From IMG/VR virus record IMGVR_UViG_3300026521_000001: a stretch of DNA of 64,000 nt; one strand, written 5' to 3'. Of this stretch, positions 2,202-64,000 are shown piece by piece (positions within the stretch are counted from its first letter, which is position 1; each line of letters begins with the position of its first letter). Both the position numbers and the translations under genes were made by a program. Under the pieces are notes generated by a model. The model made no database searches and was not told where the DNA came from. It saw only the letters and a program-made list of their open reading frames with translations. The DNA comes from an uncultured virus (IMG/VR IMGVR_UViG_3300026521_000001). Its lineage: Duplodnaviria > Heunggongvirae > Uroviricota > Caudoviricetes.

Positions 2202-2211
2202 TTTTTATCCT

Positions 2212-3303
2212 TTATCTATTCATAATTTCATTATAAAGTCTATCAAACTCTTCATCAGACATATCAGCATAATTTATATGATAATCTGCATAACTTCTTT
2301 GTGGTTTAACAGCTTTATTTATACTTGCTCTTTGTTTAGTCTCTTGCATTTGCATTTGCTGTACTTGTTTTTGTTGTTGATTATTTTGAGCCATATGCAT
2401 TGCTTCTTGTCTTTTTTGTTCAATTACCTTACCTGCTAATTGAGCATACGTTTCAATATATGAACCAGTAGTATTACCTAATAACATTTGTTTAGTAACT
2501 AATGGTTCAACTTCAAAGAAAATACCTGATTTAATATCTTGATGTAATCCTTCAATTAAATTAGGGTTTTTCATTAACATCTCTTTACTTTTTGGATCCA
2601 GTACAGATTCAATTACTTTAACTGTTGTAGGATACTCTGCATCTTGAGATATTCTATCTTCAACTTCTTTAAGCTGTACTTCAATTTCATTAGGTGCATA
2701 ATTTTTAGGAGTGTATTGAATCTCATCATCTGGATCAAACTCTTCATATACATCTAAATTTACATCTTTAATTAGTTTTTTAACAGCATCTTTATTTCCC
2801 TGTTTAATATCAACTAATAAATTTAAATCTTCTACACTTAAATTCTGTTGTTGCATCAATTCTACAGCACCTCTAAAAGGACTGATTTGTTGCATTTTTC
2901 TTGTATAATCTACACCTTTACTTGCTAATTGATAGAGTTCTTCGATGTCTTCGATTGGAATCTCTTTACCTGCAGCTTTCAAAGGTTTAAGTTCAAACTG
3001 AGTATTTTTATTTGTAGATTTATCTTCTTTAGGTTGCTCTTCTTTAGAGTCCTTAGTATTTTCATCTACATTTTCTTCATTCAGTTTAGTATTTGTTTCT
3101 GTATTAGAATCCTGTCCATCTTCAGGTTGTTCTAATTCATTTTTAATACTTTCTAATTCAGCTAAATCATCTGGATCTAAATCATCTTCTTTAGGTACAG
3201 ATTGCTTAGCTTCTCTTGCCATTGCTTCTAATTCTTCATCAGATTTTTCCCATAAAGAATCTTCATCTAAAGGTGTTACTTCTGGGTTTGTTTCTTTATT
3301 CAT
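2212..3303 (-). CDS. N4 gp57-like protein (acidic, scaffold-like)
   Basis: Acidic N-terminus, 'LASKGVDYTRKMQQI' motif, C-terminal 'DMSDEEFDRL'; immediately upstream of the capsid gene. Confidence 0.8.
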   Translation of the reverse strand: MNKETNPEVTPLDEDSLWEKSDEELEAMAREAKQSVPKEDDLDPDDLAELESIKNELEQPEDGQDSNTETNTKLNEENVDENTKDSKEEQPKEDKSTNKNTQFELKPLKAAGKEIPIEDIEELYQLASKGVDYTRKMQQISPFRGAVELMQQQNLSVEDLNLLVDIKQGNKDAVKKLIKDVNLDVYEEFDPDDEIQYTPKNYAPNEIEVQLKEVEDRISQDAEYPTTVKVIESVLDPKSKEMLMKNPNLIEGLHQDIKSGIFFEVEPLVTKQMLLGNTTGSYIETYAQLAGKVIEQKRQEAMHMAQNNQQQKQVQQMQMQETKQRASINKAVKPQRSYADYHINYADMSDEEFDRLYNEIMNR

Positions 3304-3317
3304 ATGTTATCCTTATA

Positions 3318-3626
3318 TTATACTTCTACTTCTTCTGCTTCTATTGGTTCGTCAGAATCATCAATACCTTCACTCATAAATTCATTACCTGTCATTTCAA
3401 TATTAAGTAAAAATAGATTTAAATTACTTTTAGCTACCATTTCTTCCATTACATCTGGTCTTTCCCCATTCTTTTTAATTGCTGGGTGTGCTAATAAACT
3501 GAAATTATCCATTACACTATCGTGTAAATACTTATCTCTAATAAGTAATTTAAAGTCAGGGTTCTTATCTAATCTCTTAAGTGCTTCATAAAGTACGATC
3601 GCTTCTTCTCTTGTTTCTTCATTCAT
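3318..3626 (-). CDS. N4 gp58-like protein
   Basis: 'EALKRLDKNPDFKLLIRDKYL' motif; lies between portal and the gp57-like gene. Confidence 0.7.
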   Translation of the reverse strand: MNEETREEAIVLYEALKRLDKNPDFKLLIRDKYLHDSVMDNFSLLAHPAIKKNGERPDVMEEMVAKSNLNLFLLNIEMTGNEFMSEGIDDSDEPIEAEEVEV

Positions 3627-6026: not shown

Positions 6027-7735
6027 TTTCCATTATCCTTTAAGAATTTATTTAATATATTGAACCAGATATAATTATTAAAATTATAACCTAATATAGT
6101 ATCTCTTTCTACTACAACTAAAAATTTTAATGAATAATATAATAATTCCACAAAATCAAGCAAGATAAAATCTTTAGATATATTATATATTAATGGAAAT
6201 AATATATTATTTCTACTATCTTTAGCTTTATAAGTATAATCTTTATTATCTAATCTATATGTTATTTGTATCTCTTTTATAGAATACTCTATATAATATT
6301 CTTCAAAGTATTTTCTAATAAATATATTATTATCTGGATCAACTACTTTTACAAATGTACCTATTTTACCAGGATAATGATGTGTAACAGTATCAGTATT
6401 TATATTGTAACTGAATGATATAAAATTATTATCATTTTTTCTTATTTTCATATTAGTAGTAGTATCATTATTAGCATAGTATTTATGCATTAAATTAAAG
6501 AGATATTCATTTATAATAGTTTTTTCTTTATATGGATCAATTAATTGTATTGCAAGTATTTCATCTATAATATCTTGTTTAAAAGTTACACTACTATAAG
6601 CATTCATAGTCATGAAATATTTATTAGTCATCAATCCCCATTTATCAGAAAGTAATTTTTGGTGTTTAATTTCAAGTATATTCTGTAATTGAATATCTTC
6701 TTCTATAAGAAATTTTTCTTTGGCATCTGTTAAATAGCATTTTTTGGTTCTATCATCTAATAAATACTCTACATATATCAATTCATCTGTATTAAAATTT
6801 CTTTTTATTGATATTTTATCTTTATCTATATCTATAGTCTCATCATCTTTATCATCTTGATTATCATCATCATTACTCGAACCAAGTGTACCAGAATCTA
6901 TATCATAATCTATATCTTCTTTAAATGATATTTGATTATTATCATTATCTGCGTCTTTTACTGTAAGACTATGAGTATTATCGTCAGTATCTTTTACATC
7001 AAATGATCTATCAATTAAATCAGACCAATCTAACTGAGGTGGATATATATCTTTTACATCTATAAAAGTACCAGCTTCTGTACCACTTGAAACATTCTGA
7101 TTAAACTTAAATTTTCTCTTTTTATTATAAGTATGTGTAGTTCTTATTTTATCATCTGAATAATTACAATCTGAACCAGAAAGAATATAAGTATCATTGT
7201 TTATAATATCTGTATTGGTATCTTCATCATAATTATTATTATCTTTAAGGTAATTTATTACATTCTCATCACAATCTTCTGTAGCATGTATAGTATATTT
7301 ATCATCATTTCTATCTACTGATTCTATAAAATAATGTTTACTATCATCTTTAAATTCATCTGTTTCAAATGAATATTCTTTGTTTCTTTGAAGATACCAT
7401 AATGCTTGATACAATTCATCTAAATTATCGTTATATTGAGAAAATACTATTTTTTCAGCATTATCATCTACATTGTCAATGATATACTGAAGAACTGCAT
7501 TTCTATCAACATATTTTATCTTTGAACCAGTAGAATAAGAAGATAAATTAAAAGCAGATGAGTTATGATTTTTAATAAGAACAAGTTGTTTATACATAGA
7601 TTTCATAGCTTCCATATTTGTATCTACTCTTGGTTTATTAAAAGCCATTAAGTCCTTTAAACTAAATTTATTATCATCTGGTTCATCTGGGATAGAAAGG
7701 ATATTAAATCCTTCCACTAAATTCTCTAACCTCAT
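6023..7735 (-). CDS. Putative virion structural protein (possibly N4 gp53-like)
   Basis: 570 aa acidic ORF overlapping the portal and gp54-like genes. Confidence 0.55.
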   Translation of the reverse strand: MRLENLVEGFNILSIPDEPDDNKFSLKDLMAFNKPRVDTNMEAMKSMYKQLVLIKNHNSSAFNLSSYSTGSKIKYVDRNAVLQYIIDNVDDNAEKIVFSQYNDNLDELYQALWYLQRNKEYSFETDEFKDDSKHYFIESVDRNDDKYTIHATEDCDENVINYLKDNNNYDEDTNTDIINNDTYILSGSDCNYSDDKIRTTHTYNKKRKFKFNQNVSSGTEAGTFIDVKDIYPPQLDWSDLIDRSFDVKDTDDNTHSLTVKDADNDNNQISFKEDIDYDIDSGTLGSSNDDDNQDDKDDETIDIDKDKISIKRNFNTDELIYVEYLLDDRTKKCYLTDAKEKFLIEEDIQLQNILEIKHQKLLSDKWGLMTNKYFMTMNAYSSVTFKQDIIDEILAIQLIDPYKEKTIINEYLFNLMHKYYANNDTTTNMKIRKNDNNFISFSYNINTDTVTHHYPGKIGTFVKVVDPDNNIFIRKYFEEYYIEYSIKEIQITYRLDNKDYTYKAKDSRNNILFPLIYNISKDFILLDFVELLYYSLKFLVVVERDTILGYNFNNYIWFNILNKFLKDNGK

Positions 7736-9162: not shown

Positions 9163-10836
9163 TTAGTGTACATCTTGCATTCTAATAATTAATTCAGAAT
9201 ATAATAATACCAAAGATATAGTAGTATTACCACATTTAAAATGTCTTATATTATCTAAATAATAATATTCAGATACATGGTACCTAATACCTGGTACATC
9301 ATAATCATACTCAGTATGTCCAGATACATGTGTATTTTCAGTAGTTGCTAATAAATTATCAGTAACTATTTGTTTTACTGTAGTTCTGTCATTATTTTCA
9401 TTATAAAATAATAATTTACTGTCAGCTATTGCTATATTATTTATTTTAACTGAAACGTCTCCATGTTCATATACCATATTAGTTACTTTAGTATCAGCAT
9501 CTTCTCCTGGTAATTTACCTGGTTTAACAATAGTAATAGTAGTATTTGTAGATTTACATACATTAAAATTACATAATAAAGTACCTTTATTACAATTAGT
9601 AATTTCTGAACCAGAATATATAATATCAAATGTACCTATAGTATCTGGTATCTGTATAGAGTTATCATTTATTAATGTGAAATTATCATCTAATGACAAT
9701 TGTACATTCGATACTTTAGTTAATCCTAATAAAGAATCAGATGGAGATCTTTTAATAGTTAAATATTTAGCTATTGGTTTATTAAATGTAATTATACTTT
9801 TAGGGGTATAAGTATTTTTTTGTAATGGGCAAGGTAGATTGTTATTGGTATCATCTGTCATACCTATCAATCTATACATCCACCCCCGACTATTACATAC
9901 TTTTTTTGGTATATCTACATAAGTAGATAATATATCATTTACACCCTCATCATATATATCTGATCTGCTACTATCATAATGTGTACATCCTTCAGAGTAT
10001 TTATTTGAAATAATTGAATTTCGTAATGTAAACGTACCAAAACTAAATGGTGCTATAGTATACTCTTTAGTTGATGTTATTTTATTAAAATTATTCATAG
10101 CAGATAATGTATCGCAAGCACCTGTATATTTTACATTTCTATATTCTCTAACAGATGCTGTCGTAGTTACAGAAGGTGTATATTTTTTTGCGTCTTCTAT
10201 AACATTACTATAAGTATGAGTACTGACAGCTGCTTTTCTAAATTTATATACTATAGATATTAATTGATATACTCTTGAATTACCATTACTGGCTCTAAGT
10301 GACAACCAATTATGAATAGCTGATTCTGAGCATATTGGTATTATATCTACATTAGTATATATTGGATGATCAATAAAATATCCATGAATATAATCATCAG
10401 TAGGATAAATGTAATCGACTCCTAATATAGCAGACGGATCATTTTTTATTTTATTAGACATATATATGATAGCTTCTTCTGATATTATTTCAGGTACTTC
10501 TTCTCCTATACTATCATAATATTCTTTTATATAAGCAGTTATTTTTGGGCAATCAAAGTCTGGAGGATTATATGTAGGAGAAATAAGTGAAGGTAATGTA
10601 GGATCAAAGATTTTATAATCATTACTATCTATTTCTTCTAATCCAAGAGATGGATTCCATATAGGTTCCCCATCTATATAATTAAAATCTTGATTAGCTA
10701 TCCAATCTGTGAAAGATATAGATGATCCATTATTCCAGTCATTTAACAATAAGGGGTATTCATTTATAGCATCTATTTTAAGACGTTTTATTTGTCCTGG
10801 TTCATTATAAGAATATTGTTGTAATAAATTATCCAT
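9163..10836 (-). CDS. Hypothetical tail-associated protein
   Basis: 557 aa, beta-rich composition, AAGGA RBS, in the tail cluster. Confidence 0.55.
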   Translation of the reverse strand: MDNLLQQYSYNEPGQIKRLKIDAINEYPLLLNDWNNGSSISFTDWIANQDFNYIDGEPIWNPSLGLEEIDSNDYKIFDPTLPSLISPTYNPPDFDCPKITAYIKEYYDSIGEEVPEIISEEAIIYMSNKIKNDPSAILGVDYIYPTDDYIHGYFIDHPIYTNVDIIPICSESAIHNWLSLRASNGNSRVYQLISIVYKFRKAAVSTHTYSNVIEDAKKYTPSVTTTASVREYRNVKYTGACDTLSAMNNFNKITSTKEYTIAPFSFGTFTLRNSIISNKYSEGCTHYDSSRSDIYDEGVNDILSTYVDIPKKVCNSRGWMYRLIGMTDDTNNNLPCPLQKNTYTPKSIITFNKPIAKYLTIKRSPSDSLLGLTKVSNVQLSLDDNFTLINDNSIQIPDTIGTFDIIYSGSEITNCNKGTLLCNFNVCKSTNTTITIVKPGKLPGEDADTKVTNMVYEHGDVSVKINNIAIADSKLLFYNENNDRTTVKQIVTDNLLATTENTHVSGHTEYDYDVPGIRYHVSEYYYLDNIRHFKCGNTTISLVLLYSELIIRMQDVH

Positions 10837-47417: not shown

Positions 47418-47624
47418 ATGAGAACAGAAGTTGAAGTTAGAAAAGCATTACAAGAAGCTGCTGTAAGACTTATAGGAGCTATTGCTATTAAAGATGATAG
47501 AGACACAAATATTGCTACAAAAAGTATTAGAAAACTTACTCTTGAGATTGCAGAAATTGGTAAAGAGTATAGACAAGTTACATCACCAAAAGCAATAAAA
47601 GAAGCTAAATCAAATGAAAGCTGA
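47418..47624 (+). CDS. Small helical protein
   Basis: AAGGAG RBS; 'ATKSIRKLTLEIAEIGKEYRQVT'. Confidence 0.6.
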   Translation: MRTEVEVRKALQEAAVRLIGAIAIKDDRDTNIATKSIRKLTLEIAEIGKEYRQVTSPKAIKEAKSNES

Positions 47625-48441
47625 TTTAATTTATTGCACTCCTTTGTGGGTAATTGCAAATGGTATAAGACAAAGTCATGATACAACTAATAAAGCAGAT
47701 AGTTGGATGATTGATCAATCAGAACAGAATATGCTTAAATGCCCTTTTTGTGGATGTCAAGAATTAACAGAAGTATTTACACAAAATAACTGTGTATATA
47801 ATACAATTTGTAATGATTGTAGAGCTAATTTAGATTATCATATAGGAACTAAAGACTATGATTTAATTAAACGAGTAGGTTTTAAATTTAAACATGAAAG
47901 TGTACTTGAACATTCAATGTTATCATTTGAATTTGAAGCAAGTAGAGCTTTACTGCAAGAATTATCAAGACATAGAATTGGTGTAAGCCCTACAATCAAA
48001 TCTACGAGATATACTCTTAAAGAACTAAGAAAAGAACCTATGTTTACTTGGTTAGATGGTAGAGAAAAACTATATCAAAGAGCAAGTAAATATTTATATC
48101 TGGTTCCAGATGAGGACGGTAATATCTATAATGCTGTAAATCATGCAAGTATTAAAGCTCTTGAAAATTTAAGACAATTAGTAGCAAGTAGAAAATTCAG
48201 TAATGATAGATTAAAGTATGCTTTACCAGAAGCATATAAATTTAAAGGTCAAGTGACTTTTAATTTGAGAAGTTTAATACACTTACTTGAATTAAGAATT
48301 GATAAATCAGCTTTACATGAGTTTAGAGAGTTAAGTGTAGCAATAATAGATGAATTAACTGAAGATTATAAAGAGTTAGTTTTATCTAATGACAAGATAA
48401 AAAAGAATTATTTCGCATTAAAAGGAAATGACAATGGATAA
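47614..48441 (+). CDS. thyX: FAD-dependent thymidylate synthase with an inserted zinc ribbon
   Basis: HESVLEH, SRALLQELSRHR......KSTRY (ThyX motif), YALP, NLRSL.H.LELR. Confidence 0.93.
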   Translation: MKADLIYCTPLWVIANGIRQSHDTTNKADSWMIDQSEQNMLKCPFCGCQELTEVFTQNNCVYNTICNDCRANLDYHIGTKDYDLIKRVGFKFKHESVLEHSMLSFEFEASRALLQELSRHRIGVSPTIKSTRYTLKELRKEPMFTWLDGREKLYQRASKYLYLVPDEDGNIYNAVNHASIKALENLRQLVASRKFSNDRLKYALPEAYKFKGQVTFNLRSLIHLLELRIDKSALHEFRELSVAIIDELTEDYKELVLSNDKIKKNYFALKGNDNG

Positions 48442-50792: not shown

Positions 50793-50814
50793 ATTAATAA
50801 CTAAATAATCTATT
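50788..50814. terminator. Inverted repeat at the convergence point
   Basis: AATAGATTA...TAATCTATT between the convergent blocks. Confidence 0.4.
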
Positions 50815-53800
50815 TATCCTACTAAATGGATCCATTAGATTTTCTGCTTCGTCAAAGAAATGAATTTGTCTAGCTGCTATTAAATCAGTAGGAGTGTGAG
50901 TATATGTTTCATATATTTCAGGAACATCTATTAATAATTCATTTATACTACCAAGTTTAGCTACACCTAAAGGTTTCATTTTTATAGTATTTTTTATTAC
51001 TTTTACTGTTCCAAGTAAAAATTTACTAAACATAAACATACCAGTATCATTAGCATATTTTAAATATTCATTCTGGTTCAAGTTGTAATTAATAAAGTAT
51101 TGATCGGCTAATAATAAAGCCTCTTTTTCAGATTTATGTTCTTTTAGAATATAATAATCCATCAATGTTTTCTTAGCTACAACATCTCCATATTGCATTA
51201 TTTTTAATGCTTTTTTAAATAAAGCTGTATCTTCTGTAATAAATAAGGTTTTTACTATACTTTGTGCTTCTGGTTTTAATTTAGATATGTATTTTTTTTC
51301 TATAAAATTAGATATTAAATTAGTATCATTTATATTAGATATAGTAGCATCTTCAATAATTGAACCAACAATACCGCTTTCTACTAATGAATTTAATTTA
51401 TTTTTACTAATAGAGTTTCTTAAATGTTTTAATTTAATTCTTTCTTTAGTAGTAATAATCTTTGCTTTTTCTTTAGATTCTAACTTTCTCATTTCATTAT
51501 ATTCTTTATTTAATTTATCGTACTCAATCCAGTTCTTCTTCATTTCTCTAAACACTTTTTCTATAGGCATATATTGAGATAATACCCAAAAGTTAGACAT
51601 CAAGTTTCCTAATAATACTGCACCATTAGCAATTACCATAAGTGGTTTAACTAATTTAATAAAATCTTTCCATAATTTTTCAAATAATTGAATTTTTCTT
51701 CTTATTTTATTTATATTTTTATTTGTAACATTTTTTAATAACCAGTGATTATATAAAGTTGGATCTTTATACCCCATAGTATTTTTTATTAAATGTGTTG
51801 GTATAGGTAATAATTTATTTCCTAAATATTCTTTAGTAGCTTTAGGTAATATAGCATATAAATCTGGATTAAGTATTTCTCCTGATACTGGATCAACTCC
51901 TATATATGTATATAAATGAGGTTTACTTCTATCCCATGAACCAAGAAAATAATCTATTAATTGTTTATTAATTTCAGTACCATTTATTTTTAAAAACATA
52001 TGTGATTGAGTATTAGATATTACACTTCTTATATCTAAATCATGATTATTTAATTCTGCTTCATGGTCTTTTCTTAAAACATATCTATAATCAACTACTT
52101 CTCCATCTTCATTATACAAAGGAACTACTTTAGTTTCTTTTCTCTCTTTCAATTCTTCAGCTACTTCTTTAGGATTAAAATTTTCATTAGTGTTAATTAC
52201 TGATAATTTATTCTTTATATTTTTAAGTATTTCTTCTCTATATTTTTCTGGATTATCAATATATTCATCACTTAATTTTAATCCCATAGTTGATTGATTA
52301 GTAATTTCAAATGCTCCCTTAGTATAAGCTGGTTCTGTATTTAATCTTTTCATTACATAACTTGTACCAATAGTATTTTTTAATAATCCATTTTCTCCAT
52401 TTATAGTATAATCTACTTCCCACCCATGTGATTTATATAGTTCTAATTTAGAAGCATCTATAACTGCAGACTCATATAAAGATTTACTTTTAGGTTTTAT
52501 ATAACCTTTTATTACATGGACTGGATTAGGGAATAAAGTAAGAGTATCTTTTTTTATAGTATTTCTTATATATTTAATCATCTTAGAGAAGTTTTCTTCA
52601 TCTTCTTCAACATAAGTAATTAATACTTCTAAAGATTTTCCATCTAAATAGTTTATTGAATATAGAGTAGCTAATTCATCTATCTCTTTACTTAAATCTT
52701 CTGTTATATGTCTATCTGATTCTTCTAAAATAAATAACTGTTTAGCTATACCATTAGCATTTAGTTGTAAATGTTCTACTGTAACTTCTCCTGTAAGCAT
52801 ATAATAAGCTAATGCTTTAGTCTGATTTATCATTGCTCTACCATAAGGATGCTCCATTATTCTTTTTTCTAATATTGCTATTCTATTGTCTCTTGCAGGT
52901 TTAACTAATATATATCTTTTTAGTCTATTAATAGGAATAATTGCCAAATCTGTCATTAATATAGCTTTAGTTAATCTTTTTAGTTTATTAGGTGTCTTTA
53001 AACTATCAGGAAGTAAACTGTCTAATAATTCTATATTAGCTGATTCTTGTTGCATTCTTACAGTTTCTTGCATATGTTTTATTTTATTATATAATTCATA
53101 GAATTTAGAATCTAATATATTATCTCTAAACATTTCATTATAAACATCTCTTATTAAACCAGCAATATCTAAATTGAATCTCGCTATAGCTTTAGCATTT
53201 TCTTTAGCTATTCTTGCTAACATTTCTGGATCTTTAACTTTATCTTCTATATGTTTTAAAGTATTATCTACTCCTTGCATAACTAATTTTACAGAACTTT
53301 TAACTCCATTTAATATTTCTTTTACACCTTTTAATTTATTTAGTTCTCTAAATAATTGAGCTATTTTTAATTTTTCTAATAAAGGCGTCTCAGAATAAGT
53401 ATTATTAGCCATTTTTTCAGTTAATAATATAGCAGTAGCAAATATATCATTTAGTTCTTTAGAAGCAGGTTTTTTAGTCATATTCATTATAATTTGATTA
53501 AAAGCTTTAATCACTAAATCTAATAATCTTTCAATACCATTTTTAGGTATTATACCTTCTATTTCAAGATTAGACACTTTAATGTCATTATTTTTTATAT
53601 AATTATTTAAAATATTATTTGTAGTAGCAATAGTAAAAAACTCTTCTGGATCTCCTTTTATATATCTATACATTTCCTTAGATTGTCTTTTAGCTTCGTC
53701 GGTATGTTCTACACCTATAGGAATAAAAAATGTCTCAGGATCGATTTCTGGATTATTATCAAGGTGTTTTATCACAGCTTGTTGTAATTGTAATAATCTG

Positions 53801-55176
53801 GTTCTTAATTTAGCATCTACAGATAAGGCTGTGTGTGTCATTAAGTGAGTCATTTCATGTAGAAATATTTCTTTTTCTGTTTGAAGAGATAATTTAGAAC
53901 CAGAAGATAATCTAATTAATGTTTTTTCTAATACAGCTGAACCACGATTAAAAGTTTTATTTATATAAGTTATTACTTTTAGTTTTTCTCCTACTTTAAA
54001 TATAGTCTTAATTCCTTTAGATACTTTTTCTAATATAGATTTTTCAGTAGGGGTCATAGTTTCATCTAAAGTAGCTAAGAAATCTTTAACATCTTCTTCT
54101 GTTTCAAGTAATATTTCTTCTTGTTTAGTTCCCATTGATTTAACCCAAGAAGATCCCATTTCTTTATTATTATATTTTACATGTGATACACCTTTGATAC
54201 TATATGTCCTTGTTTGTTCTTTACCTTTTATAGTATATGTATTTATTCCTCTTTCTATTTTTGGAGCTACTTTTTTAATAATTTTAAAAGGTAATTTAAT
54301 TAATTCAGAATGATTTACTTCACTTAATTTATTAGTTTTTAAATTAATAATTTTATATATATTTTTACTATAATCTACTATTATTCCTATTACTGATTTA
54401 TTATTTTTAGTATTTATTTTAATTACTGAACCAGGAGATATAGTATTAATATCTTCTTTTATTTTTTTCTTTTTAAATCTTTCTAATCTTTTTAATAATT
54501 TTATTTTATCTGATTTATCTATGTTTTGGGCAAAGTCTATTTTAGCTGGATCATCTATATCAGGATTATCTTCTATAGGAATTATTCTTAAATATTTCAT
54601 TACATTGTCGTCTGTAAGGCTTAAATCATAAGGAGCCCTTTTTAAAAATGCTTCTTTAAATGACATACCTTCTTCTTCCATAAAATACTCTACCATAGGT
54701 TCATGTAACCAATAATAATATTCATCAGTACCTTTTTCAGGTACTTTAGGTTTACTATTTATCATATAATCTACTTGTTTAAAATCAATAGTATAAGGTT
54801 TATTATTTATAAATACTAATAATGCTTTATGCGATACTTTTCTAATTTCATAACTATCTGTTTTTACAGCTGTAGATATACTTAATCTATAATGCTCATA
54901 TTTAGTATTTTTAAAAATATGAGATAATATATCAGTAACTGATATACATGAACTTCCATCACATAGTTTAGCAGCATCAATTAAATCATCTATATATTTA
55001 TATGATAAAATTCTATCTTTTAAAATTTGTACATTATTATCTTGTATATTAGTGGTAGGATTCGTTACATCTGTAATAAAACTATCTGTATTATAGTCTA
55101 TAAGTTCTTTTTTAGCTTTATTGAAAGCAGTTTTTACTATTTTTAATTGATTATTACTTATACTACATTTACTCAT
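50794..55176 (-). CDS. Virion RNAP C-terminal-domain equivalent as a stand-alone gene (zincin-like HExxH; N-terminal papain-like domain)
   Basis: EIFLHEMTH...EEFFTIATTN; C-terminal QYGDVVAK...FINY.......ANDTGMFMFSKF resembles the N4 gp50 C-terminus; own AAGGA RBS. Confidence 0.78.
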   Translation of the reverse strand: MSKCSISNNQLKIVKTAFNKAKKELIDYNTDSFITDVTNPTTNIQDNNVQILKDRILSYKYIDDLIDAAKLCDGSSCISVTDILSHIFKNTKYEHYRLSISTAVKTDSYEIRKVSHKALLVFINNKPYTIDFKQVDYMINSKPKVPEKGTDEYYYWLHEPMVEYFMEEEGMSFKEAFLKRAPYDLSLTDDNVMKYLRIIPIEDNPDIDDPAKIDFAQNIDKSDKIKLLKRLERFKKKKIKEDINTISPGSVIKINTKNNKSVIGIIVDYSKNIYKIINLKTNKLSEVNHSELIKLPFKIIKKVAPKIERGINTYTIKGKEQTRTYSIKGVSHVKYNNKEMGSSWVKSMGTKQEEILLETEEDVKDFLATLDETMTPTEKSILEKVSKGIKTIFKVGEKLKVITYINKTFNRGSAVLEKTLIRLSSGSKLSLQTEKEIFLHEMTHLMTHTALSVDAKLRTRLLQLQQAVIKHLDNNPEIDPETFFIPIGVEHTDEAKRQSKEMYRYIKGDPEEFFTIATTNNILNNYIKNNDIKVSNLEIEGIIPKNGIERLLDLVIKAFNQIIMNMTKKPASKELNDIFATAILLTEKMANNTYSETPLLEKLKIAQLFRELNKLKGVKEILNGVKSSVKLVMQGVDNTLKHIEDKVKDPEMLARIAKENAKAIARFNLDIAGLIRDVYNEMFRDNILDSKFYELYNKIKHMQETVRMQQESANIELLDSLLPDSLKTPNKLKRLTKAILMTDLAIIPINRLKRYILVKPARDNRIAILEKRIMEHPYGRAMINQTKALAYYMLTGEVTVEHLQLNANGIAKQLFILEESDRHITEDLSKEIDELATLYSINYLDGKSLEVLITYVEEDEENFSKMIKYIRNTIKKDTLTLFPNPVHVIKGYIKPKSKSLYESAVIDASKLELYKSHGWEVDYTINGENGLLKNTIGTSYVMKRLNTEPAYTKGAFEITNQSTMGLKLSDEYIDNPEKYREEILKNIKNKLSVINTNENFNPKEVAEELKERKETKVVPLYNEDGEVVDYRYVLRKDHEAELNNHDLDIRSVISNTQSHMFLKINGTEINKQLIDYFLGSWDRSKPHLYTYIGVDPVSGEILNPDLYAILPKATKEYLGNKLLPIPTHLIKNTMGYKDPTLYNHWLLKNVTNKNINKIRRKIQLFEKLWKDFIKLVKPLMVIANGAVLLGNLMSNFWVLSQYMPIEKVFREMKKNWIEYDKLNKEYNEMRKLESKEKAKIITTKERIKLKHLRNSISKNKLNSLVESGIVGSIIEDATISNINDTNLISNFIEKKYISKLKPEAQSIVKTLFITEDTALFKKALKIMQYGDVVAKKTLMDYYILKEHKSEKEALLLADQYFINYNLNQNEYLKYANDTGMFMFSKFLLGTVKVIKNTIKMKPLGVAKLGSINELLIDVPEIYETYTHTPTDLIAARQIHFFDEAENLMDPFSRINRLFSY

Positions 55177-55200
55177 TTGTATCCTTTGTTTTTTAACATT

Positions 55201-58200
55201 TTAACATAAATTATTATATTCTATAGATTCTATTTCATCTAAAGGTATATTATGCATCATACTAAAATAATGTAATTTTTCACTTAATTTATGTATATAT
55301 TCTTTAGATAATTTTTTTTCATCCTGTTCAAACATTGACTCTGTAACTGCAAACATTCTATCTTGGTCATATTGAGAAAATTCTACAATAGATACTTTTT
55401 CCTTTTTTAATGCTTCATTAGTAATTAACATAAATCCTTTCTTATTTTCTTGTAATTTCTTGTATATATTACTTTTTACTACATTTGGTGTTGGAGTACT
55501 ATCAAAGTTTTTTCCTGTTAAATCTAAAAGGTCTTCTATACTCATTGCTTCAAGTTTTGTAACTAATTCAGGGGAAAATATTTTATCATGATATATCCAT
55601 TGTCTGAGTATATTAGGATCTAAATTTATTAATAAATCAGCTAAATCTTCTGTTAGTTCAGTGTATTTATACTGTTTATTTTTATTACTCAGTTTTTTGT
55701 AGATTACTTCTTTTAAGGGTTGCCAGGTATCACTTCTAATATCATCTCCTGTTTCATCAATATAATAAGAACCCCCTTCTAATAAATCACTTGTAGAAGG
55801 GATATCATCCATATTTTTAGTAGCTGTTACATAAACAAATTTATTTGCATTTTTATTTGTCTCTTTTGGTTCAATTCCAAATACTACCATATCATTTCTG
55901 TTATCTACATCCATAACATATAACTCTGTATCTTTTTGTTTAACAGCATTTATTATATTAGTAAAGAATAATATACCTTCTTCTGTTAAATTATCTTTAT
56001 TTCTCTCTACAAAGTCAGGGTCATAAGTTTTTTTTGTTGTACGTGTTAAACCTGTTACAGTTATAAAACTTCCATCCTTTAATTCTAAAGCACTTAAAGA
56101 ACCTGCTTCTTTCATTACAGTTTCTGTATCCATTACAAAGAAATGTGGATTAGTACCATCATATATAGTAGTAGTTGATACTTGCTGTTGCTCTTCTTGT
56201 TGTGTTTGTTGATTGTTGTTGAATGTTTCTGCTATATATAATGCACCTATTGATGCTTTAATATCACTCATTTTTTTCATAAATTCAGAAGAATAATCTT
56301 TCCCATTTTTTAATGTATCAAATCTTGCTCCTTGTGATGGGACATAAGTAACTTCAATATTTTTATCTGTTATAATTTTTATATAATCTGATTTATATTT
56401 ATCACTTATAACATTAAAATTAACATCCATATATTCAATATTTTGTATATTTCCAAAATTTTTTATAAATTCATTTGCAAATTCTTGTCTTTTTTGTAAT
56501 AGAACATTTGTAACATTAAATATATTATTTTGTTCTTGTGGTTCTTCTTTTTTATTAAATCTATCTTCAAATGCTTGTTTATGGAAAATATCATAGTTAT
56601 TATGTACTTTTTTATATTCATTTGGTTGTAAATTATATTTTTCTTTTAATTTATTAAATTCTTCTTCTGTAACTCTGAAAGCATAATTATTAGTTCCTAA
56701 TACTTTAGCTGGTATATTATTATTTATAGCAGCTATAATACCAGCCTCATCAATACCTGTTTGACCCCCACTTCTAATTAAATGAATTTTTATACCATTA
56801 TTTAATAGTTCTTCTATAAGTTTAGTTAAATATTTATTTAATGTATCTTGATTTGTTTGATTAAAACTATATATACCATTACCTGCTATATTTAATTCAA
56901 TGCTATCTTTACCTAATGCTTTTATTTTTTCTACTAAGTTGTTAATAACTGACTTTGTTAATTTAATATTACCGTCTTGAATATTAATAGGTAAATATAA
57001 TTTACCATTCTGATTAACAGCTTTCTTTGTTAATTTTTCTCCAGGAGTATTAAAATCAGTAGCTATTGCAATAGTTACATCAGCATTAGCATTTGTTCTT
57101 GTTCTATCAGCATAATTATTGTTATTGATTGTTTCAATACTAACATTTTCCGATAAAGTATTATTATTATTATTATTATTTAAAGATTTATTATTTCTAT
57201 TATTATAATACCAGTGTCTAAAGTCTTTAAATCCTTGATTATCTCCTGCTTTATTAGCTGTTTTTTTATAAAAATTACTCTTCTCCTTATGTTCTTTATC
57301 AAATAGATTATATTTCAAGAAATCATATAAAGCATTTTTAAAATGTTCATCTTCAGACATTCCATACTTATCAGTAATTTCAATTACTAAATCTTTTAAA
57401 TTATCTATTTCAGTATCTTGTAATATTTTATGTAAAATTTTACTTATTTTAGGTAAATTAGCTAATACATTAAGTAATCCGTCTCCAGCATTTTTACTAT
57501 CTATATATGGAGTTAAATTTAAATAATTATCCATTATAGTATTTGCTTCTTCTTCACTTATATTTAATTTATCTGGATCCAGAGTATTAAATAAATTATC
57601 TAATATAACTTTTATATCTTTTAATTTAAATTGAGAATCAACACTATCAGTAATATAGTTATGTAATACTGTTATATCATAGTTTTCTAATATGTCTCTT
57701 ACTTTATCTTTGGCTGTATTTAAAGCTTCTCCATCTGTTAAATCTTTGATACTTTTTTCAATAGTAAATAATATATCTCCTAAAGAAGAAAATACATTAC
57801 TAATAGTCTTTTCATCTATTTTAGATATTTTATTAAAGTCTAAACTACCATCTTTATTTAAAGCACTATATATTTTAGATTTTAATTCTAATAAAGGTCT
57901 TAAATTGCCTACATTATTTATATGTTTAGCTGTTTCTTCATTTTTTAGTAAAGCACCTATTTTAGATAACATTGCTAAGTAAGTATTATAGTTAAAATGA
58001 TTATTTAATAAAGCTTCATTATAATCTTTAATAATAGAATTATTAGAATTATCTACTCCAAATAATAAGGCATCAAATATATGCATTGCTTTATATAAAT
58101 TATCATTTACTAAGAGTGAATCTACTATAGTTTTACTGTCTATCTGATGTGCTAATATAGGACCAATAGCAGGTAAATTTTCAATAAAGAAATCTACTTT

Positions 58201-61200
58201 CTCATCTATAGTATCTTTACCTTTATTATTTCCCGTAGTGATTCCTATTTTATTTCCTGTAGCATCTTTTTCTGTTTTTTCAGAAGTCATATTACCACCA
58301 TCAAATACAGATGGAATATCATACCAAATACCATCATCAATCATTGACTTAATTACTTCTTTTATCTGGTTTCTTGTATATTTCCCCATAGATGAAAATC
58401 TGTATTCAGCTAATGCTACTTGATCCAGAGAAGATAATTTAGTTTGTTCTTCTTTAGATAAGAATTTACTTTCTAATCTCTCAAAGAATACTGGTATAGT
58501 AATATTAAAAGCTAATTTGCTTAAATCTTGATTTAATGCAGTAAATTCATCTAAAAATCTAAAATTAGTTTTAAATGCCATTTGTAATAATTTACCTACT
58601 GCATTTTTAAATACTTTCGTAAAATAATCTTCTGTATGTCCTTTCCTTATCTCTACCATATCTAAAGGTAAATCAATAAAATCATCTACTGTAGTATCTA
58701 TTTCTCCATCTTTAACAGGTTTATTTAATTCTTTATCTAATTCTGCTTTACCTGTAATTTCGTTTAATTTATAGGCAGCAAATGCTTTTTTAACTCTTTC
58801 TTTAAGTATATAAGCATTATCTTTATTAGCACTTATATCTATATGTTCTACATCTTTTCTATATTTATACCCTCTTGGATCTGCGTCATAACCAGATAAT
58901 AATTCATTTTCTTTTACATTCAATATATCTCTTACTGTGTTTACTATTTTTTTAAATATTTCTATATATTCTTTTTTATCTTCTTCACTTAAATCTTTTA
59001 ATTTATCAGATATTTTACTAATATCATTATCAAACATATAACGAAGTAAATTTCTTAATGTTATATCTTTTTTACCTAACTTATTCATATCTTTATAGAA
59101 TTTATCTATAAACATGGTGTTATATAATTTTTTAATAATTGCTGCAACAGAAGCACCATAAGTTTTTACCATCATTGCTGGTTTAACTTCTTTTCTTTTA
59201 AAAGCAAAGTTACCATTATCATCTTTAAAATTATTTAGTAAATTATTTATAGCATTAAGAATAACATTATTATCAGTAGGTTTTACTTTATCTTGCCAGT
59301 ATAAAGAATCAGAATCAGCAGTTAATTGCCATCTATTATTGATATTATTATTTGCCATGTAATCACTTATACTTTCTTTGTCTTTTTTATTTAATTCTTC
59401 ATCTTTTTTTAATTTACCATTTTTATTGAACCAGTCAGGTTTAACATCTCCTAACCTCCTTTTGGTACCACTTACCGATTCAGTAAATTCAGGAGTCTTT
59501 GCTTGATCATTAATATATGTTGCTAACGAATTATAGAAATCTTTAAATAATTCATTTTTTTGTAACTCTCCATGAGTTAATTTTCCTTCTTCTTGTAGTT
59601 TTTTATATTCTTTTATCATATCCATTATTTTATCTGGAGGTGTATGTTCTAAACCAAACATATCAATATCTGTAAATATATTATCTTCACTTGGGTTTTT
59701 AGGAGTTATATACACTCCTCCTTTAGCTAATTTATTAAGAATCTTTTGTTTCACAGCCTCAAATGATGCTGCAAAGCCATATCTATCCATTTCATCATAA
59801 GTAGGATTATATTTACCAGAGAATAAAATATTCATAATAGTAATAATCATACCAGAAGTAATAGCATCAGACTCTATAGATAACTCTGTTTCAAACTCTG
59901 TTAATTTAGGATTATTATCTATAGCTTTGACTAAATAATATATTTCATTTAGTGCTTGTAATGCATGTAAATTTTCACCTTTATTCACAAAGTCAGAAAT
60001 AATATCAGTATCTTTTTTAGTGTAATTATCTTCTATTATATTAGATATTGCTTCAAATACAGGTCTAAATTCGTCTGTTATTGAATAAGTCCAACGATCT
60101 AATATTTTTGTAAAATTTATATATTTTTCATTTAATTCACTTATCATATCATTATCTGTTTTCTTATCTGGATCCATATCAAATGCTTGTGCTATTGCTA
60201 AATGAAATAAATCTAAAGCATTATTATTTGTCATATCTAATATAATAGAACCAGTATTCTTTATTTTAACTAAAAATCTATGTACTTTATTATCTTGTGG
60301 ATTGATAGAACTATCCATCATTGTTCTCATATTTTTAGCCATGAACCAGGCAGTTTTAAATCCTTGTTTAATTAAATCAGAAAACATTCTGGTGTATTTA
60401 AGTCTTCTTTTTAAATCTTCATTATTAGAAATTACAGAATTTCTTTGTGTTATATGTACTTCGTTTTCATTTTCTACACCTACCATTGCTTCTTGAGTTT
60501 CTTCATCTAATTTCATGAATAAGTCAAATGTTCTATTTGCTGTGTATATTACTTCATTTGATTCTTTAGTTACAAAACCCATACCTTCATCAGGTAGTTC
60601 AGTAGCTTCAGTACCCTTAATAGTTTCATTTGGAATATATTCATCTTTAGCTTTTATAGGAACAGTCTGTTCATGGTCAAATTTAAGTATTTGAGACATC
60701 ATACTATTCATCATAGAAAAAGTAGTATTTACTCTATCTTTAATATCTTCTATTTTACCTTCTGGTTCAATATTTTTATTAATTTCTAATTTATATAGAT
60801 TATATTGTTTTCTGGTACCATCTCCTGTAAAATCTTCATTTACAGTAGTTTTTACTACTTTAAAATAACCATCTTTATTATTACTTTTAGTACTTTCTAT
60901 AGATACTTTTTCTACTAAATTTAACACAAACATACCTAAAGCTAATTGTGTATCTTCTTTAAAACTTATAGGAACATCATCTGTCCATTTGTATCCTAAC
61001 TCATTATAAACTAATTGTCCTATATCTTTAGCTAATTCATATTTAGGTAACCCATTTTCTTTAATTATATTAAGCATTTTAGTTATTTGACTTTCATCTG
61101 AATTACTATTAAGGAAATCTCTTTCATCTTTATACCCCATCATTTTAATTACTTTAAGTCTATCAACAAATTCATATCCATTTAAAATACTTAATACATT

Positions 61201-62022
61201 AGGCATTAAAGCCTCTATAGTAGAAGCTACTAAAGGATGTAATATATTTTTATCATTTACTTTTTTAGTAAAAGGTAAAAGAAAAGCATCTAAAATATCT
61301 CCTGTTATATATTTATCTTTTCCCTTTATTTTCGCTTTTAAAGTACCATCTTTTATTTCTACTGGTTCAATGTTAGAATTTATAGTTTTATATAAAATAG
61401 TGTACCATAGACTCTTATTATTAGTTAAACCATAACCATATTGAAAATCTTTTATTTTTTCTTTTAAAAAATCTAAATTATCAATAAATTTTTTAAATTC
61501 TTGAGTTTCTGTTATATTAAATTCTTTCCAAGAATCTATAATATGTGGAACCAGATAATTAGATAAATAACTTACATAGCCTTGTTGTTTAATATGAGAT
61601 ATTGAACCAGCTAAAAAAGAAGTATTTAATAGTTTAACTGTTAACTTATCATGTGTATCTTCATTGATAGAAGCAGTATTTTCTCTATGTATATTTGCTC
61701 CTATAGGGTTTATTTTAACAAGAGTTTTATATGCTTTATTTAATTTATTTAGTTTAGTCTTTGCTTTTTTTAAATGTTCTCTTTTTAAAGTTTTTATCTC
61801 ATTTCCTAATTTGATAGAATCTGTAATATAAAGATTTTTTTCTTTATTTATTTTTACTAATTCTTCTCCTAAAAGATTTCTTTTAGTATCTATTTTACTT
61901 TTAATTTTATCTGCTTTAGCTACTTGTTTTTTAATAGTTTGTATATCTTTTTCTATATACTTAATGTTATTATCAAGTCTATATTTTAGTTTTTTTACTT
62001 TAGCATTACATGATTTTCCCAT
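55201..62022 (-). CDS. Virion-encapsidated RNA polymerase, catalytic part (N4 gp50-like), with SLOG-like insertion
   Basis: N.R..M...INPQDNKVHR, motif A ESDAITSG, motif B RKEVKPAMMVKTYG, HQIDS, motif C HIFDAL. Confidence 0.9.
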   Translation of the reverse strand: MGKSCNAKVKKLKYRLDNNIKYIEKDIQTIKKQVAKADKIKSKIDTKRNLLGEELVKINKEKNLYITDSIKLGNEIKTLKREHLKKAKTKLNKLNKAYKTLVKINPIGANIHRENTASINEDTHDKLTVKLLNTSFLAGSISHIKQQGYVSYLSNYLVPHIIDSWKEFNITETQEFKKFIDNLDFLKEKIKDFQYGYGLTNNKSLWYTILYKTINSNIEPVEIKDGTLKAKIKGKDKYITGDILDAFLLPFTKKVNDKNILHPLVASTIEALMPNVLSILNGYEFVDRLKVIKMMGYKDERDFLNSNSDESQITKMLNIIKENGLPKYELAKDIGQLVYNELGYKWTDDVPISFKEDTQLALGMFVLNLVEKVSIESTKSNNKDGYFKVVKTTVNEDFTGDGTRKQYNLYKLEINKNIEPEGKIEDIKDRVNTTFSMMNSMMSQILKFDHEQTVPIKAKDEYIPNETIKGTEATELPDEGMGFVTKESNEVIYTANRTFDLFMKLDEETQEAMVGVENENEVHITQRNSVISNNEDLKRRLKYTRMFSDLIKQGFKTAWFMAKNMRTMMDSSINPQDNKVHRFLVKIKNTGSIILDMTNNNALDLFHLAIAQAFDMDPDKKTDNDMISELNEKYINFTKILDRWTYSITDEFRPVFEAISNIIEDNYTKKDTDIISDFVNKGENLHALQALNEIYYLVKAIDNNPKLTEFETELSIESDAITSGMIITIMNILFSGKYNPTYDEMDRYGFAASFEAVKQKILNKLAKGGVYITPKNPSEDNIFTDIDMFGLEHTPPDKIMDMIKEYKKLQEEGKLTHGELQKNELFKDFYNSLATYINDQAKTPEFTESVSGTKRRLGDVKPDWFNKNGKLKKDEELNKKDKESISDYMANNNINNRWQLTADSDSLYWQDKVKPTDNNVILNAINNLLNNFKDDNGNFAFKRKEVKPAMMVKTYGASVAAIIKKLYNTMFIDKFYKDMNKLGKKDITLRNLLRYMFDNDISKISDKLKDLSEEDKKEYIEIFKKIVNTVRDILNVKENELLSGYDADPRGYKYRKDVEHIDISANKDNAYILKERVKKAFAAYKLNEITGKAELDKELNKPVKDGEIDTTVDDFIDLPLDMVEIRKGHTEDYFTKVFKNAVGKLLQMAFKTNFRFLDEFTALNQDLSKLAFNITIPVFFERLESKFLSKEEQTKLSSLDQVALAEYRFSSMGKYTRNQIKEVIKSMIDDGIWYDIPSVFDGGNMTSEKTEKDATGNKIGITTGNNKGKDTIDEKVDFFIENLPAIGPILAHQIDSKTIVDSLLVNDNLYKAMHIFDALLFGVDNSNNSIIKDYNEALLNNHFNYNTYLAMLSKIGALLKNEETAKHINNVGNLRPLLELKSKIYSALNKDGSLDFNKISKIDEKTISNVFSSLGDILFTIEKSIKDLTDGEALNTAKDKVRDILENYDITVLHNYITDSVDSQFKLKDIKVILDNLFNTLDPDKLNISEEEANTIMDNYLNLTPYIDSKNAGDGLLNVLANLPKISKILHKILQDTEIDNLKDLVIEITDKYGMSEDEHFKNALYDFLKYNLFDKEHKEKSNFYKKTANKAGDNQGFKDFRHWYYNNRNNKSLNNNNNNNTLSENVSIETINNNNYADRTRTNANADVTIAIATDFNTPGEKLTKKAVNQNGKLYLPINIQDGNIKLTKSVINNLVEKIKALGKDSIELNIAGNGIYSFNQTNQDTLNKYLTKLIEELLNNGIKIHLIRSGGQTGIDEAGIIAAINNNIPAKVLGTNNYAFRVTEEEFNKLKEKYNLQPNEYKKVHNNYDIFHKQAFEDRFNKKEEPQEQNNIFNVTNVLLQKRQEFANEFIKNFGNIQNIEYMDVNFNVISDKYKSDYIKIITDKNIEVTYVPSQGARFDTLKNGKDYSSEFMKKMSDIKASIGALYIAETFNNNQQTQQEEQQQVSTTTIYDGTNPHFFVMDTETVMKEAGSLSALELKDGSFITVTGLTRTTKKTYDPDFVERNKDNLTEEGILFFTNIINAVKQKDTELYVMDVDNRNDMVVFGIEPKETNKNANKFVYVTATKNMDDIPSTSDLLEGGSYYIDETGDDIRSDTWQPLKEVIYKKLSNKNKQYKYTELTEDLADLLINLDPNILRQWIYHDKIFSPELVTKLEAMSIEDLLDLTGKNFDSTPTPNVVKSNIYKKLQENKKGFMLITNEALKKEKVSIVEFSQYDQDRMFAVTESMFEQDEKKLSKEYIHKLSEKLHYFSMMHNIPLDEIESIEYNNLC

Positions 62023-62035
62023 AGTATATTATCCT

Positions 62036-64000
62036 TTATTTACATATATTTTCAATTTCTTTTCTTATTATATCAAAGTATTTTTCTGTCTCTTCTAAAT
62101 TTTTAATTATAGTATTTGGATTACTTTTACCAATTATACTTTTTTTAGTCTTATCAATTTGTTTAACTAAGGTCGCTAATGTTTTATCTGGTATCCCAGC
62201 ATCCAGTAATTCTCTACCATTATTTAATATATTCTCTTTTAAATTATTTAAACCGTGTGTATCTCTTTCATAATTATTAGATATATTAGTAATTATTTTA
62301 TCTATAGAGTTTTGTACTTTTTTATAACTATTAGATAATTTATCTATAGTACTTTTTATTTTTATAGATTCTTTATTTTTATTTTTTCTATATCCTCTGT
62401 TCATTTCTAATTGTTGTTCTTTCAATTTAATCTTATTACTTATAATATTTACATCTTTTAATACTTTTTCTACATTAGATACAAACTTTTTAATAGAAGT
62501 ATTTCTAATAACTATATCTTCAGATTCTGTGATTTCAGCTAAGTTATTTATATCATTTATAATATCTGTATCTGCTAATTTAACAGATTTATCTAAATCA
62601 GATATATAATCTCCCTCTATATCAGTTATATCTACTTCATCTAATACAGAGTCTTTGAAATCAGACATATTTTCAGATTGCACAGTACTTTCTGGAGATT
62701 CTGGTTTAACATAAATATCTTTATATGCCCTATTAAATCTGGCTCTTAAAGTTTGAAAGAATCTAAGTTGCTCATTTTTATCTTTAGAAGCTAGATATTT
62801 TAATATATCTTCATTATTTACTGAATCTGTAACCCATAATATTTTACTGTCTACTATTTGTTTTTCTGTTAAAGGTCCTTCACTTTTATTTAACATATGC
62901 TCTATTTTATCAAACATCATATCTACAGCATCATAGTCATAAATAAAATTACCTAATTGCTCATGTATAAATTCTCTCTTATCTTCAATAGCACTTAATA
63001 AATCTGCAATTAACTGTCCTATACTATTATCTATGTCACCACCACTATTAACTTTTTCTTTTAACCATTCAGGAGTTTTAGATTTCTTAGGTTTTTTAGG
63101 AGGGGTACCTGTATTATCTTTAGGTGTAAATGTAGAACTAGAAGAATTATTACTATTATTACTATTATTATTACTATTATTTGAAGTATTAGTATTTGTA
63201 GATATTCTTTTTAATAACTCTTGTAAATTACTAATATCTTCATCTGATAAATTACCATACATATCATCGGTAGGACTCGATATAATAGTTTTATCATTAA
63301 ATTCATACATATTAGTTAAAACATTATTATAGAAATCTTGGAATAATTTAGATACTTCTTCTCTTTCAGTTTCATCTAAATCCTCAGCATTTATAAAGTT
63401 TAAACTAAATTGATCACTTACCCCTTTACTTCCATCTGGTTCAAAGTTAGAAGGCATTACATTCTTTATAGTAACTTCCTTAGTATCTGGATTATATTCC
63501 ACATTTACTTGTATTAAATTACTTTTACCTACTTTCATTATAATAGAATCAGTACGAGTACCAGTAGTCTGTCCTTCTTGTTGTGATACATCTTCAGAAT
63601 TAACTAAAATACTAAATAACTTACTTTTATTATCAATTAATCTTTTTATAGTTGATAAAATATCTTCTTTATTCTGTGTAAGTTTAAAAGAACCAGTAAG
63701 ATACATATTAGTTATAAATTCTACTATATCAGGATTATTTTTTATATTAACATCAGTATCTGTAGAATCATCTCCCCTATTTTCTATCTGTTTATCACTT
63801 TGTAATTTATCTAAATTATCTTTGTTAGTAATTATACTTCTACCGTTAGAAATATCTTTTATAGAAGTAATAGTAATATTATTATATTTGTCATTTATAG
63901 TACCTTTAATTTCGTATAATTTACCGTTTTGGTTTTTAGTTATAGTAAAAAAGTAATCGCCATTATCAGCTTTAGCAAAGTTTTTAACATTATATGATTG
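62036..64000 (-). CDS. Partial large virion/ejection protein (probable vRNAP N-terminal-domain equivalent)
   Basis: Reading frame stays open from the stop at 62036 to the window end, beyond the ORF-track Met at 63706; low-complexity N/S linker; ends ENICK. Confidence 0.7.
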   Translation of the reverse strand, partial: QSYNVKNFAKADNGDYFFTITKNQNGKLYEIKGTINDKYNNITITSIKDISNGRSIITNKDNLDKLQSDKQIENRGDDSTDTDVNIKNNPDIVEFITNMYLTGSFKLTQNKEDILSTIKRLIDNKSKLFSILVNSEDVSQQEGQTTGTRTDSIIMKVGKSNLIQVNVEYNPDTKEVTIKNVMPSNFEPDGSKGVSDQFSLNFINAEDLDETEREEVSKLFQDFYNNVLTNMYEFNDKTIISSPTDDMYGNLSDEDISNLQELLKRISTNTNTSNNSNNNSNNSNNSSSSTFTPKDNTGTPPKKPKKSKTPEWLKEKVNSGGDIDNSIGQLIADLLSAIEDKREFIHEQLGNFIYDYDAVDMMFDKIEHMLNKSEGPLTEKQIVDSKILWVTDSVNNEDILKYLASKDKNEQLRFFQTLRARFNRAYKDIYVKPESPESTVQSENMSDFKDSVLDEVDITDIEGDYISDLDKSVKLADTDIINDINNLAEITESEDIVIRNTSIKKFVSNVEKVLKDVNIISNKIKLKEQQLEMNRGYRKNKNKESIKIKSTIDKLSNSYKKVQNSIDKIITNISNNYERDTHGLNNLKENILNNGRELLDAGIPDKTLATLVKQIDKTKKSIIGKSNPNTIIKNLEETEKYFDIIRKEIENICK

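Follow-up and report, generated by a model that had tools for sequence, protein, structure and literature searches.

The virion RNA polymerase (vRNAP) of phage N4, gp50, consists of three globular units, an N-terminal domain (NTD), an RNA polymerase (RNAP) and a C-terminal domain (CTD), held on flexible linkers, one of which lies at residues 2102-2123 (PMC13434306). The N4 enzyme has to unfold to pass a tail channel of ~35 Å (PMC13434306), and its CTD is required for encapsidation and its NTD for injection (summarised in PMC3821669). Suppression of cysteine in the ejection operon of the Schitoviridae has already been published, with passage through the periplasm given as the rationale (PMC11445570, PMC3715699). 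Here we describe a vRNAP locus in a 64,000-nucleotide (nt) stretch of DNA from an uncultured virus (IMG/VR record IMGVR_UViG_3300026521_000001), which as a whole is called the window below. The vRNAP of the window is cut into three genes, and cysteines sit at the ends where one piece faces the next.

Two further systems are relevant to cut ejection proteins. In the cultured Alteromonas phages vB_AmaP_AD45-P1 to P4 the vRNAP lies in two open reading frames (ORFs), and the authors (Garcia-Heredia et al. 2013), who noted both the split and the Cys, judged the protein unlikely to be injected (PMC3821669). AD45-P1 encodes a piece of 2481 amino acids (aa) whose sole Cys lies 2 residues from the end (ending SKHCKQ) and a 1409-aa piece whose sole Cys is residue 4 (MTIC); it differs from the window in having one junction only, between RNAP and CTD. 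Electron cryomicroscopy of the virion pre-ejectosome of cyanophage A4 showed Cys1715 of gp27 joined to Cys5 of gp26 by a disulfide (PNAS 2025, PMC12002296), and the part of that paper concerned with the bond describes it as locking or stabilising a docked C-terminal helix and states no general rule. A4 (Anabaena phage A-4L) gp27 (1717 aa) and gp26 (1114 aa, starting MSKHC) have one Cys each, the bonded one. An atlas of crassvirus favors partial unfolding in protein ejection and, in the passages that touch on the subject, mentions disulfides only between tail proteins (PMC10172136). In full-text searches of the literature we found the lack of Cys in injected polymerases and the A4 clasp described, and no paper stating a terminal-Cys rule for split virion polymerases.

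A virion RNA polymerase encoded in three pieces

The split vRNAP locus of the window comprises three ORFs, all on the minus strand, as are the features of the locus given below. Upon re-reading the window we obtained exactly the ORF and Cys positions that had been reported in an original prediction made from the letters of the window. The upstream ORF (62036-64000) is cut by the window end, so that 654 aa are visible, and its single Cys is the penultimate residue, 653 of the visible 654 (ending ENICK, codon 62042-62044). In the RNAP piece (55201-62022, 2273 aa) Cys is restricted to residue 5 (MGKSC, 62008-62010) and the last residue, 2273 (ending YNNLC, 55204-55206). The CTD piece (50794-55176, 1460 aa) has Cys at residue 4 (MSKC, 55165-55167), which faces the second junction, and at residues 72 and 77. 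Together the three pieces contain 6 Cys in 4387 visible residues, with four at the facing termini and two in a CX4C motif. Cys makes up 0.555% (101/18196) of the residues in the 52 window ORFs of at least 100 aa, and at this rate the chance of finding Cys this near all four facing ends is ~4 × 10−8, or ~1.6 × 10−6 if generous end windows are allowed.

The junction 1 spacer (62023-62035) is 13 nt long and carries an AGGAT ribosome-binding site, and the ORFs on its two sides are in different frames. The junction 2 spacer (55177-55200) covers 24 nt after a TAA stop, shares the frame of the next gene and carries an AAGGA ribosome-binding site. Only one TAA and 8 sense codons in the same frame (55177-55203) lie between the RNAP and CTD pieces, and therefore read-through would yield a fused protein of the kind found in a sister phage described below. 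Each of the two downstream genes begins at the earliest start codon available after the previous in-frame stop, preceded by an AAGGA(T) ribosome-binding site. The locus does not have the one-polypeptide form (~3500 aa) of the gp50 family, as it consists of three ORFs of which the downstream two have their own ribosome-binding site and start; nor are its pieces free of Cys. N4 gp50 itself, described as Cys-free in the original prediction, does contain 0 Cys in 3500 aa.

To judge from its sequence, the window phage is a distant N4-like podophage whose vRNAP is cut into an N-terminal module, an RNAP module and a CTD. PHROG 2206, 'virion RNA polymerase' (3406 profile positions), matched the RNAP piece (E = 2.6 × 10−48, residues 301-776 to profile positions 1060-1496) and the CTD piece (E = 2.5 × 10−93, residues 352-1420 to positions 2259-3368), and two such matches in succession indicate that the pieces are consecutive parts of an N4-type vRNAP. 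The best-matching stretch of the catalytic RNAP domain lies at 59695-61122 (residues 301-776 of the RNAP piece) by PHROG 2206 and tblastn, the latter giving 20-25% identity to vRNAPs annotated in cultured N4-like phages. By phmmer, residues 763-1403 of the CTD piece align to N4 gp50 2790-3443, and a profile built from CTD pieces matched the solved N4 vRNAP chains in the PDB with E = 6 × 10−120. The CTD piece also carries an HExxH motif (HEMTH, residues 440-444, 53845-53859), which is invariant in all CTD alignments made (A1, A2, A5, A6); an HExxH has been reported as a zincin-like motif in the C1 subdomain of N4 gp50 (PMC13434306). The window therefore shares with the gp50 family a catalytic single-subunit RNAP module, homologous to the N4 mini-vRNAP, and a CTD with HExxH, homologous to gp50 residues ~2124-3500.

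The upstream piece of the window gave no Pfam or PHROG match, and phmmer with the upstream pieces of the window and of the related loci L017, L018, L049, L062, L064 and L069 found no match among the vRNAPs collected; we assign these pieces, the upstream ORF of the window included, as N-terminal modules by their position. The rest of the window is N4-like and encodes two RNAPII subunits, DNA polymerase, exonuclease, primase, a Sak4-like protein, SSB, terminase, portal and major head protein. This gene content, taken with the homology of the pieces, suggests that they are packaged in the virion and injected. The locus resembles N4 gp50 and other one-piece vRNAPs of the Schitoviridae, such as gp71 of Pseudomonas phage DEV, in its homologous RNAP and CTD modules, HExxH, N4-like genome organisation and strong avoidance of Cys. 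It differs in that those proteins are single chains of ~3400-3500 aa without Cys, whereas in the window the protein is divided among three genes and the cut ends bear Cys; in addition, a SLOG domain is added to its RNAP piece, and the module upstream is without detectable similarity to anything.

Paired cysteines at junctions in related loci

To follow the junctions in other genomes, we seeded locus searches on conserved CTD peptides, so that the searches were blind to split state and to Cys at the upstream ends, and obtained 52 IMG/VR loci and 12 metagenome loci. Junctions were tabulated by walking upstream from the CTD, counting adjacent pieces with clean starts. Of the resulting 23 junctions, two are those of the window and one belongs to the cultured Alteromonas phage AD45-P1; 14 metagenomic loci supply the rest. 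A C-terminal Cys faced an N-terminal Cys at every one of the 23, which speaks strongly for the original prediction, where conservation of the terminal Cys in relatives with the same split had been set as the check. Between the C-terminal Cys and the end there are 0-5 residues (last residue in eight cases, penultimate in another eight), and the N-terminal Cys is residue 3 in 14 cases, residue 4 in four and residue 5 in five. Intergenic gaps at these junctions range from -4 to +24 nt, and many genes overlap as TAATG. In the three-piece chains L015, L021, L022, L023 and L026 the pair is present at both junctions.

The Cys are largely confined to the junctions. Pieces that bear a junction are nearly always without any further Cys, outer chain ends never have Cys, and ~30 fused genes found in these loci are Cys-free, save one internal Cys each in L016 and L052. 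In L069 (1-1960) the pair is kept (IIRCLKT at the one end and MGTIRSC at the other) though an ORF of ~88 aa sits between the pieces. Locus L031 is broken twice (6070-6327 and 10007-10067) and L029 once more (802 and 1290 aa; 5500-5900), in each case without a Cys pair; these breaks look like frameshifts or assembly errors because the frames overlap, lack a start or break within the CTD. Locus L019 (5400-7300), likewise broken without a Cys pair, shows many frame changes and was left out of the junction count. We conclude that the terminal Cys of the window are a real, non-random and conserved feature.

A census of proteins gave a similar picture. HMMER with CTD residues 340-1460 returned 1990 proteins at E ≤ 1 × 10−3, and the best 150 of these, together with P0004, were sorted by where they start. 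Within this set 32 of 37 CTD-size proteins have Cys at residue 3-5, three further proteins with an N-terminal Cys begin 269-294 residues further in, and the N-terminal Cys is the sole Cys in 33 of these 35. Proteins reaching >1000 residues upstream (n = 81) are Cys-free in 71 cases, have internal Cys only in five and start with M-x(1-3)-C in five, the last being RNAP+CTD pieces. Those with 1000-2400 residues upstream (n = 71) contain 14 Cys in 237,121 residues. We read 18 short Cys-less proteins that begin well within the CTD, and five that begin within the RNAP domain, as truncated predictions. The first residue of Cys-tipped CTD pieces corresponds to N4 position ~1940-2290, near the linker between RNAP and CTD, and that of Cys-tipped RNAP+CTD pieces to ~800-1270. 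The two cuts of the window fall at the two inter-domain linkers of gp50.

Across the tree, changes in split state go hand in hand with changes in junction Cys. In a FastTree phylogeny of 133 CTDs, from which rows truncated by >300 residues were excluded, the 35 Cys-tipped CTD pieces require at least 10 changes on well-supported branches. Thirteen independent pairs differ in split state; junction Cys differs in the same direction in ~9, in the opposite direction in 0 and not at all in ~4 (sign test, median p = 0.004). The Cys pair is kept across CTD lineages with <38% identity to one another.

The clade of the window itself shows how such a cut may arise. The window CTD piece is sister, with a support of 100, to P0005 from locus L001, to which residues 200-1516 of the window RNAP piece also align. 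P0005 is fused across junction 2, with RNAP and CTD in one protein of 3032 aa whose sole Cys is residue 5; the upstream protein of L001 (1684 aa) has a sole Cys that is penultimate. L060, likewise fused across junction 2, has the N-terminal domain of the CTD piece and no Cys at the position equivalent to junction 2. From the fused sister P0005 and L060, we deduce that the cut between RNAP and CTD is recent in this lineage and that a new Cys was placed on each new end. The junction 1 pair is kept in L001, L061 (INKC facing MSKTC), L062 (KEKGC facing MGLSC) and L064 (LRCE facing MNC). The upstream pieces of the window and L001 cannot be aligned and show no similarity, yet both end in Cys-Lys. 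The window is thus a three-piece example with two candidate clasps, and its second cut is lineage-specific.

The Cys codons at the junctions are TGT in 37 cases and TGC in one, in genomes of low GC throughout, and could be functionless footprints, either the scar of a splitting element such as a decayed intein or a DNA or RNA signal for coupled translation. In inteins the first residue and the +1 extein residue are often Cys, and the junction codons, besides being nearly all TGT, stand within a few codons of a stop or start, in many cases at TAATG overlaps. However, the distance of the Cys to the stop (0-5 codons) and to the start (2-4 codons) varies, as do the flanking bases, and Pfam finds no intein domain in the pieces. 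The pair is also retained in L069 despite the ORF between its pieces, and neutral scars would not outlast the divergence of lineages to <38% identity in proteins so purged of Cys. A footprint of this kind therefore seems extremely unlikely. Nor is there room for the halves of a split intein, as would be needed for trans-splicing: ahead of the N-terminal Cys stand no more than 2-4 residues, and behind the C-terminal Cys 0-1, whereas a C-intein half takes up ~35 aa or more before the +1 Cys.

Probable disulfide clasps and other possible roles for the facing cysteines

We consider it likely that the facing Cys form disulfide clasps that restore one chain for packaging and ejection. The original prediction had proposed that the pieces are rejoined head-to-tail by disulfides; the census and the tree support the pairing well, and the bond itself is proposed here by analogy with A4. 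The likeness to A4 lies in adjacent genes for large internal ejection proteins, in the same geometry as the window, with a Cys 2 residues from one end and a Cys at residue 5 of the next, and in an N-terminal M-S/G-K-x-C pattern similar to that of the window pieces. The window thus shows the arrangement of an A4-type clasp, namely a C-terminal Cys followed by a Cys at residue 3-5 with few others. A4 differs in that it is not N4-like, its proteins are no polymerase and it has one clasp where the window has two. We rejected homology of A4 gp26 and gp27 to the vRNAP pieces, as discussed below.

A plausible sequence of events begins with non-covalent association of the pieces in the infected cell. 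Each facing pair would then oxidise to an intermolecular disulfide, most likely in the virion as in A4, and a continuous head-to-tail chain would be regained with stubs of only 0-5 residues. In N4, encapsidation depends on the CTD and injection on the NTD; split pieces must therefore remain together, and a covalent link could ensure that all three modules are co-packaged with the CTD. Unfolding during ejection would undo non-covalent docking, so a covalent bond at the extreme termini would survive where docking fails and would add almost no bulk, keeping the modules linked while partly unfolded in the tail channel. The reducing cytoplasm may finally open the bonds; such reductive release is plausible, and threading as one chain is likewise a putative part of the scheme. 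Complex prediction with CTD residues 1-700 (alignment A6) and RNAP residues 2074-2273 scored 0.00 against a mark of 0.32, in a run that had no controls and in which the partner fold was uncertain, and the score counts neither for nor against a clasp.

The two thiolates could instead hold a metal ion, in a 'zinc clasp' for which the original prediction had allowed. At junction 2 of the window, the CX4C nearby (Cys72 and Cys77, 54946-54963, in the N-terminal domain of the CTD piece) might be added to RNAP Cys2273 and CTD Cys4 to give four Cys. The CX4C and its domain (CTD residues 35-204) recur inside the fused protein of L060 (Cys984/Cys989, 32% identity, E = 1.4 × 10−14), which lacks the junction Cys, and therefore the motif is independent of the junction; the motif is missing from P0005-P0009, and the CX4C, lying outside the junction, is the sole internal Cys feature of the window chain. 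Elsewhere almost every junction has just two Cys to contribute and lacks a conserved His. With two ligands only, a metal is weakly held and would be lost on unfolding, and the A4 density was built as a disulfide (PMC12002296). We therefore regard a metal bridge as quite unlikely.

A disulfide might also form later, after ejection. The pieces would leave the virion separately, and the bonds between them would form under the oxidising conditions of the periplasm, either unaided or through host DsbA, building or locking a trans-envelope ejectosome. Disulfide formation is catalysed in the periplasm, and this is how the scarcity of Cys in ejected proteins has been explained (PMC3715699, PMC11445570); joining there would remove the problem of making a disulfide in the cytoplasm. 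However, the equivalent bond of A4 was seen within the mature virion (PMC12002296), RNAP and CTD are thought to end in the cytoplasm, which would leave junction 2 short of time in the periplasm, and the model would not account for how pieces without the CTD come to be co-packaged. Joining in the periplasm is unlikely on these grounds.

Several points weigh against disulfide clasps formed before ejection. Direct evidence for the bond comes from A4 only, with none observed in any N4-like phage, and the A4 proteins found no match in phmmer at E ≤ 10 against 158 proteins collected for the analysis and reached a probability of only 0.3% in hhalign. A disulfide is hard to form in the reducing cytoplasm where assembly takes place, so the model needs prior non-covalent docking, and a scan of 21 window ORFs turned up neither a thiol oxidase nor a thioredoxin-like gene. 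The N-terminus of the upstream piece lies beyond the window end. Five of the 37 CTD-size proteins (P0011, P0070, P0074, P0098 and P0112) and one protein of RNAP+CTD size (P0034) start near a linker without a Cys; on the tree the five are isolated tips amid fused relatives, and for P0074 and P0112 the closest relatives that could be retrieved are fused proteins without Cys. The preference for TGT is seen in genomes that are all low in GC, and codon usage cannot tell selection on the protein from selection on the DNA. Lastly, the RNAP+CTD proteins of L017 (518-8161, Cys at residue 10), L018 (5699-13348, residue 5) and L049 (5072-12388, residue 6) start with Cys and have no adjacent partner ending in Cys.

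These last three proteins would also fit a model in which each terminal Cys acts alone, for example by binding another virion component or by being modified, and no bond joins the two. The partners of these proteins may well be encoded elsewhere, for which L069, where the pair is kept across an inserted ORF, serves as a precedent; three genes upstream in L018 there is a 923-aa ORF with a single Cys, 10 residues before its end. If each Cys acted alone, it would not be expected on both sides at 23/23 adjacent junctions and never at outer chain ends, nor would both Cys be lost together in fused relatives. We find independent action of the two Cys very unlikely, and retain a disulfide between them as the probable explanation.

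Neighbouring features and meaning for ejection

The RNAP piece contains a cpYpsA/SLOG domain (56671-57156, residues 1623-1784; Pfam PF12694, E = 5 × 10−8; PHROG 10774, E = 1.2 × 10−22). It shares ~43% identity with segments of 'putative RNA polymerase' genes of crAss-like phages and has further relatives among stand-alone genes of ICP1-like Vibrio phages. A word-based search with the whole RNAP piece returned SLOG-bearing proteins as its sole matches. The domain may be an injected accessory or anti-defence module. For the CTD piece, a word-based search found one relative and a related-locus search with this piece alone found none, and a protein-atlas look-up with its first 340 aa gave scores that were all <0.8. 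A match in Vibrio phage 1.169.O, annotated only as 'coil containing protein', proved to lie in a one-piece gene.

The genes immediately upstream of the vRNAP encode small proteins that are Cys-free, both in the window (468-965, minus strand) and in genome G001 (ORFs of 165, 240 and 503 aa). These proteins occupy the place of the N4 ejection proteins gp51 and gp52, and their composition fits the Cys suppression described for that operon (PMC11445570). Elsewhere in the window, a ThyX (Thy1) thymidylate synthase gene (47614-48441, plus strand) has a Cys-rich N-terminal extension that weakly matches the Lar restriction-alleviation family (E = 9.8 × 10−5, below the Pfam cut-off).

With the terminal Cys, the known absence of Cys from injected virion polymerases becomes a precise rule that allows for one functional exception. 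They also provide a test for annotation, in which a genuine vRNAP split has a Cys pair and lies at a domain boundary, while a frameshift artefact has no Cys and breaks within a domain. The published inference from AD45, that Cys means 'not injected', is thereby reversed.

A broader and more tentative proposal is that the vRNAP of such phages is a redox-cleavable polyprotein, in which an oxidised covalent thread is pulled out unfolded and in order, the cytoplasm then frees the polymerase, and the arrangement reflects a general design rule for injected proteins. This is possible, and we hold it with less than even confidence. If true, the polymerase would be released from a membrane-bound N-terminal module, which is impossible for the one-piece N4 enzyme, and the pattern of no Cys except at facing ends would span N4-like phages and unrelated podophages such as A4. 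The finding also bears on how a protein of ~3500-5000 residues exits the capsid via a channel of ~35 Å, since if the pieces must be covalently chained, ejection would be a threading process in which continuity of the chain matters. Because the link could be broken at will, by Cys-to-Ser substitution or by reductant, packaging would become separable from ejection.

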